Source of the DNA: a virus
Taxonomy: Duplodnaviria; Caudoviricetes
Length of the DNA stretch: 53,572 nucleotides
Direction: 5' to 3' (one strand)
IMG/VR virus record: IMGVR_UViG_3300031705_000005
Span: 1 to 53,572 of that record
The translations under genes were made by a program, and so were the position numbers. How positions within the stretch are numbered: position 1 is the stretch's first letter; every line of letters begins with the position of its first letter. The notes under the pieces are model-generated. The model did no database searches. It saw only the letters and a list, made by a program, of their open reading frames with translations, and had not been told where the DNA came from. Of this stretch, positions 10,303 through 10,571 are shown piece by piece.

Positions 10303-10374
10303 GCGGGAGAAGGGTTAAGAGAAACTCGTTGTACTTCCAGTACAAAGAAGTTGGGGCAGTTCCAACCTCCCGCT
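10303..10374 (+). tRNA. Non-canonical tRNA-Gly(TCC)-like RNA (T-loop GGCAGTT)
   Basis: Full cloverleaf: GCGGGAG/CTCCCGC, GGGT/ACTC, TTGTA-CTTCCAG-TACAA, GTTGG-GGCAGTT-CCAAC, T73. Confidence 0.75.
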
Positions 10375-10376
10375 CT

Positions 10377-10494
10377 AAAAGAACAATTGAAGATTGAGAT
10401 AAAACCGCTCAAGCAATTCGGAAGGTTAAAGCATATAAGACGATTTATCGCATCTGCTAGTTTCCCCGATGGTGTTACCGGCTATTGTTCTTTT
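10377..10494 (+). ncRNA. Structured RNA motif, copy Y (precedes tRNA-Gly-like gene)
   Basis: Closing stem AAAAGAACAAT/ATTGTTCTTTT, TTGAAG, hairpin TTGAG-ATAAAACCG-CTCAA, longer variable arm, CCGG. Confidence 0.6.
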
Positions 10495-10499
10495 CTTAT

Positions 10500-10571
10500 G
10501 CGAGAGAAGGGTTAAGAGAAACCCGCTATACTTCCAGTATAGAGAAGGTGGGGCAGTTCCACCCTCTCGCT
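10500..10571 (+). tRNA. Non-canonical tRNA-Gly(TCC)-like RNA (T-loop GGCAGTT), second copy
   Basis: GCGAGAG/CTCTCGC, GGGT/ACCC, CTATA-CTTCCAG-TATAG, GGTGG-GGCAGTT-CCACC, T73; covaries with the 10303 copy. Confidence 0.75.

Follow-up and report, generated by a model that had tools for sequence, protein, structure and literature searches.

The DNA analysed here, hereafter the window, is a whole linear IMG/VR viral record of 53,572 bp (29% complete according to CheckV), with a GC content of about 33%. It was found in 24 sequencing runs, all of marine metagenome DNA. The phage belongs to a marine lineage of myophages, and among isolates its baseplate wedge protein comes nearest to those of Microcystis phage Mel-JY01 (47.6% identity) and Flavobacterium phage immuto (40.1%). 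A tRNA cluster occupies 8.6-10.6 kb on the + strand. ARAGORN reports four tRNA genes in the window, none of them at the positions of two tRNA-Gly-like elements, a and b, which lie in this cluster and are the subject of this work:

10303..10374, + strand: tRNA-Gly-like element a, 72 nucleotides (nt) including the discriminator U73; 99.0 bits with the covariance model R1 described below
10500..10571, + strand: tRNA-Gly-like element b, 72 nt, loops identical to those of a; 100.6 bits with R1
8670..9493, + strand: canonical tRNAs Ser-UGA, Glu-UUC and Gln-UUG, with normal T-loops, recognised by ARAGORN and the Rfam tRNA model

The original prediction, made from the sequence alone, placed two complete cloverleaves with identical loops at 10303-10571; coordinates, sequence and fold all agree with this. 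Element a is laid out as GCGGGAG AA GGGU UAAGAGAA ACUC G UUGUA CUUCCAG UACAA AGAA GUUGG GGCAGUU CCAAC CUCCCGC U. Both elements adopt cloverleaf-type folds with stems of 7, 4, 5 and 5 bp and have in common A8 and A9, the D-loop UAAGAGAA, the anticodon loop CUUCCAG (7 nt, with U33 and UCC at the anticodon position), a 4-nt variable loop AGAA and the T-loop GGCAGUU. Predicted folding energies are -28.1 (a) and -31.7 kcal/mol (b), with z-scores of -3.65 and -3.85, and none of 200 shuffled sequences was as stable. The stems differ in a way that preserves structure, as had been proposed: both sides are changed at four pairs (4:69, 27:43, 29:41 and 50:64), and pair 11:24 goes from G.U to G-C. Three T-stem pairs are G-C (49:65), U-A or G-C (50:64) and U-A (51:63). 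The elbow is unusual. It consists of A18 and G19 together with G54, G55, C56, A57 and G58, so that of the canonical residues G19 and C56 alone remain. CCA is absent from both genes, again as predicted, the 3′ trailers being CUA and CAA.

The expectation that standard finders may miss such RNAs is borne out for two of them. In addition to the missing ARAGORN call, the Rfam tRNA model (RF00005, threshold 29 bits) gave no match to the elements, even at E<=10 over 8500-11000. The sole Rfam match beside them, CRISPR-DR57 at 10486-10522 (E 1.4), is at chance level, and the transfer-messenger RNA (tmRNA) models of Rfam have no match anywhere in the window.

To find relatives, patterns were scanned over a viral collection and one genome per prokaryotic species, and a covariance model was then built from 19 sequences, both window copies being in the seed. 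We call it R1, for the Mom-associated tRNA-Gly-like RNA defined in this analysis. The search of viromes suggested in the original prediction was thereby productive: R1 matches are present in 83 fetched loci, and one R1 search alone gave 99 matches with 58 distinct sequences. Members outside the seed score 65-92 bits. Across the 19 sequences, 99.7% of the cells of the cloverleaf are paired and 13 of the 21 pairs show double changes; none of 500 shuffles reached this support, and frames slid along the alignment were 39-52% paired. The high-GC subgroup taken alone (22 sequences) gives 95.0% paired cells and double changes in 10/21 pairs. The elements are members of a real, conserved RNA family that had no earlier annotation. 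Three groups can be distinguished: AT-rich myophages including the window, with elements usually in tandem, 5 nt apart, inside a tRNA cluster; GC-rich viral contigs together with 12 genome contigs, all 12 from Planctomycetota or Verrucomicrobiota; and scattered others. Used as blastn queries on 50,697 GenBank phage records, an element of the window and one of the high-GC group had no match at E<=1. The R1 search found none in Mel-JY01, immuto, PA5oct or Mu, a similar search being positive in the relatives G005-G009.

Which positions are conserved was counted over 55 distinct full-length members. G1, C2, G71, C72, U73, C35, C36, A37, G10, G19, A44, G45 and C56 are found in 55/55, and six further positions are nearly invariant (G3 52, C70 52, A18 54, G54 53, G55 54 and G58 53). 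According to the review of Giegé and Eriani (PMC9976931), bacterial glycine identity is made up of U73, G1-C72, C2-G71, G3-C70, C35 and C36, and G10 and G45 take part in a folding triple. All these identity residues are present in both window copies, so that the claim that the identity elements of glycyl-tRNA synthetase (GlyRS) are kept extends, with invariance or near-invariance, to the whole family. The elbow of the family retains G19 and C56, while G18, U54, U55 and A58 are replaced in nearly all members; some T-loops read GGCGGUA or GGCAGUA. The 5′ side of the anticodon loop is much freer. Position 33, the near-universal U of the anticodon U-turn, is A in 28 members, U in 18, G in 5 and C in 4; position 34 is U in 32, C in 13 and A in 9, and the loop has 6, 7 or 8 nt. 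Although CCAG was included in one search pattern, scans with the anticodon loop unconstrained returned NCC alone among members with the GGCAGUU T-loop. Read from the sequences, this pattern fits charging rather than decoding.

The genes next to the elements point to a partner enzyme. The open reading frames (ORFs) flanking all elements were clustered, and Mom was then located with a local hidden Markov model. A member of the Mom family (PF25680, E 5.6e-43) is the immediate upstream neighbour of the element, in the same orientation, in GC-rich loci and also in L016 and L054, which are AT-rich. A Mom ORF touches or abuts the element in 38/83 loci, on the same strand every time; these comprise 33 of the 36 loci with a GC fraction of at least 0.45 plus 5 AT-rich ones, and one of the 3 high-GC loci without an adjacent Mom (L045) is truncated by the contig end. 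The GC-rich prophages have the gene order tail tube, chaperones, mom, element and tape measure. Since the prophage element is internal to the tail module, with mom on one side and the tape-measure gene on the other, and not at an end, we discarded the possibility that it is an attachment site. In none of the 29 high-GC Mom-adjacent loci examined does ARAGORN find a tRNA.

In the GC-rich loci the mom reading frame continues through the element, and we therefore considered whether the element might be a mere conserved C-terminal peptide of Mom. This was ruled out by the frameshifted variants that keep the RNA, by the non-coding AT-rich homologues and by covariation. In members with a 1-nt-shorter loop the mom frame downstream shifts and the tail of the peptide is fully different, with the cloverleaf kept; the peptide beyond the element is not conserved; and in L016 and L054 the mom stop codon precedes the element by 2 nt. 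Because frameshifted variants keep the cloverleaf, the tail peptide is unconserved and mom ends before the element in these two loci, selection acts on the RNA.

Such overlaps are also what would be expected if the elements were tRNA-shaped processing or stability signals (RNase P/Z sites, protective 3′ ends) for neighbouring mRNAs, that of mom in the high-GC phages and that of an 88-amino-acid ORF in the window, with no amino acid carried. In both groups the upstream ORF ends within the element or crosses it, and no terminator-like sites are present within 8300-11000 of the window. An acceptor arm and a T arm would be enough for such a signal, however, which has no need of the invariant C35, C36 and U73 or of the first three acceptor pairs. 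It would also leave unexplained the tandem duplication and the specific pairing with a Gly-tRNA-dependent enzyme, and we regard it as very improbable.

Some details of the overlap are recorded here for themselves. In L085 the mom ORF spans 1551-2291 and the element 2190-2261; there is no stop before the element, which is read through as AGEGSRETRNPPRIERSGQFRQSA. Excising the RNA from loci of the L085 type would deprive the mom mRNA of a stop codon. In 21/22 GC-rich sequences pair 7:66 is G.A.

The linkage was also looked at from the side of the enzyme. In 301 Planctomycetota genomes, 11 Mom loci were found in 9 genomes. A strong R1 match (69-82 bits) directly follows mom in four of them, a minimal 66-nt RNA does so in six, and one has neither; after removal of the centre genome, which holds two of the four strong matches, the figures are 2 strong, 6 minimal and 1 none, of 9. 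The minimal tRNA-like RNA found after mom (66-67 nt; L185, L188, L189, L191, L192, L195) has a 7-bp GCGGACG acceptor stem with U73, a short hairpin that replaces the D-arm, a loop of 6 nt (CACCAA) and the T-loop UGCGACC. As judged by sequence and position, it is a second class of mom-linked RNA.

What Mom does with a charged tRNA was shown only in 2026. Mom of phage Mu, which has a GNAT fold, moves glycine from Gly-tRNAGly onto adenine N6 of double-stranded DNA, after which a rearrangement of the adduct yields carbamoylmethyl-adenine; the enzyme refuses Gly-tRNAAla (Silva et al., Nat Commun 2026, PMC13219725). In that account host tRNA is scavenged, and late expression may limit the harm to translation. 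A phage-encoded or adjacent tRNA is not mentioned in its main text, a statement that does not extend to the supplements, which possibly hold gene neighbourhoods. Our own literature searches turned up neither a mom-linked tRNA gene nor a non-proteogenic tRNA encoded by a virus.

We consider it somewhat probable, on the basis of these sequence patterns, that the elements are dedicated donors of glycine, used for the most part outside the ribosome and chiefly by Mom, and so serve momylation. The original prediction had listed three readings, namely non-ribosomal glycyl donors, decoys for tRNA-targeting defences and nuclease-resistant translators. The first is favoured because Mom stands beside family members and is present in relatives of the window phage, and because Mom uses Gly-tRNAGly (PMC13219725); for decoys and for nuclease resistance we found no specific evidence. 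The Fem/GNAT aminoacyl-transferase that had been suggested as something to look for was thus found in part: GNAT-fold Mom is present beside family members in 38/83 loci and in the six most complete relatives, and none is in the window itself.

The relatives account for this last point. The window is collinear with the near-complete genome G005 (26/42 ORFs match, at about 55% amino-acid identity) and spans the equivalent of its 41-92 kb, the mom region of G005 lying outside. In G005 the elements are at 76.3-76.5 kb and three mom paralogues, two of them abutting, at 132958-137587; G007 also has three (138988-146043). Several Mom genes per genome were noted earlier for PA5oct (PMC7824862). All six relatives that are at least 70% complete (G005, G006, G007, G008, G009 and G030) carry 2-3 mom paralogues (E ~1e-48), and the same six have 1-2 R1 matches each or a pair seen in their locus. 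In Mel-JY01 and immuto, the isolates without R1, Mom was not found either. Its absence from fragmentary relatives (0/4 and 0/19) is uninformative; neither the window nor any of three larger mapped fragments (G001, G025, G022) covers 133-138 kb of G005. The window phage may carry mom beyond the sequenced fragment. Numbering of Mu Mom in GenBank equals that of the paper minus 10. In an alignment of eight Mom sequences, including the three G005 paralogues, H58, Y59, D149 and Y159 are invariant, R111 is R in 7/8 and S124 is S or T in 8/8; these six are named as key active-site or activity residues of Mu Mom (PMC13219725).

Several observations weigh against this assignment to Mom. Within the 53.6-kb window there is no Mom match, and in this lineage the elements sit in a tRNA cluster about 57 kb from mom, nothing tRNA-like being present beside the mom genes of these myophages. 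The co-occurrence of mom and element within one myophage clade is a single evolutionary observation, not a set of independent ones. Mu and PA5oct have Mom and no R1 match, so Mom does not need such an RNA; in the Mu system all three E. coli tRNAGly isoacceptors serve the enzyme, and recognition of the acceptor end only is suspected (PMC13219725). Conversely, the contigs of L175 and L184, two complete phages whose ends are repeated, have R1-like genes and no Pfam Mom, and the L175 gene is accepted as tRNA-Gly by ARAGORN. Others concern decoding: C32 is present in all members, some relatives have ordinary-looking anticodon loops (e.g. UUACCAA in L043), and with U33, UCC and a 7-nt loop the window copies could decode. 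An unmodified UCC with C32 reads all four glycine codons in other systems (PMC7826273). Finally, the GGCRGUW T-loop is also found in tmRNA and in the tRNA-Phe of a phage with 25 tRNAs, and is therefore compatible with translation.

The last points lead to the main competing explanation: the elements would be working, or dual-role, glycine tRNAs with an unusual elbow that aid late protein synthesis, reading GGA and GGG, or all GGN codons by C32 and an unmodified U34, any use by Mom being incidental. The same-strand location in a tRNA cluster agrees with this, as do the NCC at the anticodon position throughout the family and the lack of a canonical tRNA-Gly both in the window (ARAGORN) and in the 95%-complete G005. 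So do the U33, UCC and 7-nt loop of the window copies, the T-loop occurring in tmRNA and a phage tRNA-Phe, and the L175 member, called tRNA-Gly in a complete phage without Mom. In relatives with the UUACCAA loop, ACC would match GGT, the commonest of the 844 glycine codons of the window (60%). UCC, on the other hand, suits 21% (GGA) or 37% (GGA and GGG) of them, and G007 has a canonical tRNA-Gly(GCC) alongside its two elements. Nor are the marks of decoding maintained: U is at position 33 in only 18/55, where all four bases are seen, loop length varies from 6 to 8 nt, and nearly every member has other bases at four canonical elbow positions. A normal D-arm is missing from the 66-nt minimal forms next to mom, whose loop is of 6 nt. 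In the 29 high-GC loci codon supply fails as an explanation, because there the element is the sole tRNA-like gene and is placed at the 3′ end of mom in a tail-gene module. A role in translation, alone or alongside one with Mom, is in our view rather unlikely. The elbow change by itself does not prove exclusion from translation, since tmRNA with a similar T-loop enters the ribosome.

The variability of the anticodon loop could be viewed differently, as the sign of decoys or resistant replacements directed against host defences that target tRNA (anticodon or T-loop nucleases). Some anticodon nucleases cut at positions 33 and 34, which are the most variable of the family. There are published cases of phage tRNAs whose altered anticodon loops let them evade host nucleases (PMC10264068, PMC11464382, PMC11555353). 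But no link to defence or to a nuclease was seen in any neighbourhood, and the variation at position 33 looks neutral, this position being also a third codon position of the overlapping ORF in high-GC loci. Neither the tight same-strand adjacency to mom nor the strict set of identity residues in the acceptor stem would be explained. We judge a defence role improbable; specific support was found neither for it nor for a processing signal.

Dedicated glycyl donors feeding Mom would have an analogue in bacteria. To our knowledge, the staphylococcal non-proteogenic tRNAGly species are the only known precedent for a private aminoacyl-tRNA pool. They bind EF-Tu and the ribosome weakly, have TGC or TGT for TTC in the T loop and no pseudouridine, in agreement with the lost elbow motifs named in the original prediction; FmhB prefers them through the D and T arms, and detection so far is confined to S. 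aureus and S. epidermidis (PMC7826273). Like the staphylococcal NP1-NP3, the elements are extra tRNAGly paralogues that keep GlyRS charging (here as predicted from the identity residues), have lost U55 of the T-loop, and are donors to a GNAT-fold tRNA-dependent transferase, FmhB/FemA/FemB in staphylococci and, by prediction, Mom here. A paralogue at locus L004 and the 66-nt mom-adjacent forms even read UGCGA, which begins with the staphylococcal triplet. The differences are as clear. The elements form another lineage, found in viral loci and in loci of bacteria of the Planctomycetes-Verrucomicrobia-Chlamydiae (PVC) group only, with the T-loop GGCAGUU; they reside in viruses and prophages instead of a cellular chromosome, and the acceptor is presumed to be DNA adenine and not a peptidoglycan precursor. 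U33 is not conserved in the R1 family, for which weak binding to EF-Tu or the ribosome would be a prediction. The logic of the family resembles the staphylococcal case: charging determinants are kept, those of decoding are relaxed, the elbow is rebuilt and a partner enzyme is genetically attached.

Mu itself provides another comparison. Its enzyme belongs to the family (PF25680) found beside R1 members or in the same genomes, with the key residues kept and glycine as the amino acid; Mu, however, encodes no tRNA and lacks an R1 match, and uses host tRNAGly. The resemblance to alphaproteobacterial tmRNA, given in the original prediction as a GGCRG T-loop, is borne out by Rfam RF01849 (consensus T-loop GGCgGUA) and by the two genomes examined (GGCAGUA and GGCGGUA). 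The T-arm is GGGGGCRGUACCC there and GGGGCAGUUCC in the elements, but the T-loop motif alone is common to both. Such tmRNA has alanine identity, a tag reading frame, pseudoknots and no anticodon arm, and the elements have G3-C70, not G3.U70. With ordinary phage tRNAs, including the variants that escape anticodon nucleases, the elements have in common a location in a tRNA cluster and altered loop nucleotides. Those tRNAs differ by a canonical elbow, by U33, by being seen by tRNA finders and by having no link to a transferase.

We propose the following course of events for the window phage and its relatives. The elements would be transcribed with the tRNA cluster, excised by host tRNA-processing enzymes and given a CCA end. 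Host GlyRS would then charge them, which is expected because the complete bacterial glycine identity set is kept. The glycine would be passed mainly to phage Mom-family GNAT enzymes and moved to the N6 of adenine in double-stranded DNA, where carbamoylmethyl-adenine would form and block restriction. The rebuilt elbow and the unconstrained 5′ side of the anticodon loop may mark a carrier freed from ribosomal decoding, as with the staphylococcal tRNAGly that feeds FmhB/FemAB. With such a carrier, a private glycyl pool would probably be kept out of competition with translation, and Mom may prefer the carrier. Structure, family, conservation pattern and genetic linkage to mom are direct results of the comparisons above, and the biochemistry of Mu Mom is taken from the literature; expression, processing, charging, use by Mom and exclusion from the ribosome are what we predict for the elements from them.

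Extended to the whole family, the proposal is more tentative, at somewhat below an even chance: many phages and prophages may encode a translation-insulated glycyl carrier RNA as a dedicated co-substrate of Mom. The rebuilt elbow would then be a specificity handle by which the charged RNA is directed to Mom instead of EF-Tu and the ribosome, and this handle would keep massive late momylation from starving translation of Gly-tRNA.

Other features of the locus are given below:

10099..10173, + strand: third Gly-type paralogue, with a Gly-type acceptor stem, U73 and A8-A9; 50.9 bits with R1
9848..10114, + strand: conserved 88-amino-acid ORF, with homologues directly upstream of elements in 20 loci
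10174..10302, + strand: spacer 1, with conserved ends AGAAUGAU ... AUUAUUCU; fold not significant (z -1.83)
10375..10499, + strand: spacer 2, close to the spacer of L037; fold not significant (z 0.02)

The third paralogue has a canonical elbow, with GGG in the D-loop and the T-loop UUCAAAU, and its CCA is encoded. Its anticodon loop is of 8 nt (CAUUCCAG); ARAGORN calls it 'tRNA-???' with anticodon tc, and the Rfam tRNA model gives 46.7 bits with one inserted loop base. The L004 counterpart (4964-5035, - strand) has a 7-nt loop CAUCCAG, a D-loop without GG and the T-loop UGCGAUU, in which the triplet resembles that of the staphylococcal non-proteogenic tRNAGly. The stop codon of the 88-amino-acid ORF falls within the 10099-10173 gene, and in relatives it is the UAA of the D-loop. 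No Pfam family matches this ORF, and among PHROGs there is one weak match; a word-indexed protein search gave 3 homologues. The gap between the two elements is 5 nt in most relatives. The spacer ends are common to spacer 1, spacer 2 and the spacers of L004 and L037, and the common parts comprise a closing helix AGAAYRAU...AUYRUUCU with compensated changes, the motif UUGAAG/AUUGAGAUAA and CCGG. The spacers may represent a small insertion or a structured unit. Downstream of both elements the window encodes a long thymidylate-synthase homologue (10866-11966, 366 amino acids), soon followed by a CobT-like gene (12819-14999) and then a CobS-like (AAA) gene (15803-17080); the position of the CobT-like gene downstream of elements is kept in 19 loci.

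Variants and rejected candidates were also recorded during the scans. L166, L170, L172 and L182 hold 67-nt variants with a reduced D-arm, the loop UUCCAG and the T-loop GGCAGUU; in L170 (and in L166, by ORF layout), which are T4-like phage fragments, it is flanked by the genes for the gp45 sliding clamp and the gp44 clamp loader. L183 (10119-10963, - strand, in a 160-kb contig with 25 ARAGORN tRNAs) has a tRNA-Phe(GAA) with the T-loop GGCGGUA, as well as an element with a GCC anticodon and the T-loop GGCAGUU that ARAGORN misses; Mom-like matches in this contig are weak (27.7 bits). Among the neighbours of the exceptional loci L175, L184, L158, L013 and L183 there is no informative Pfam family. 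Of 20 viral loci from a D-arm pattern scan, the element is real in L006 alone, the other 19 being chance matches. Eighteen genome loci matching a loose pattern (11 Acidobacteriaceae, 3 Streptomyces, 2 Arthrobacter and 2 alphaproteobacterial) have neither an R1 match nor an Rfam family at the gathering score and were rejected. The 11 Acidobacteriaceae loci, picked up by a loose T-arm (L079, L087, L088, L090, L099, L100, L104, L111, L117, L119, L126), probably have some other conserved sequence in common.

In dozens of loci of viruses and prophages, mom thus has as its physical neighbour an RNA gene that ARAGORN and the Rfam tRNA model do not see. Aminoacyl-tRNAs dedicated to donation outside the ribosome have precedents; what we propose as new is a viral donor, with a different elbow and a role in DNA modification. 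If this is true, then to judge from the literature searches the elements would be the first non-proteogenic tRNA encoded by a virus and also the first RNA gene of a DNA-hypermodification pathway, and they would be a second, independent case of a non-proteogenic tRNA after that of staphylococci. They would account for a class of conserved intergenic sequence that has no annotation in marine myophages and in Planctomycetota and Verrucomicrobiota prophages. They would also offer a natural system for the partitioning of one aminoacyl-tRNA pool between translation and another pathway, together with a set of tRNA variants for mapping recognition by Mom, and the R1 model would become a marker predicting carbamoylmethyl-adenine DNA in uncultured viruses. 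Momylation would then be, in many lineages, a two-component pathway and not the scavenging of host tRNA alone.

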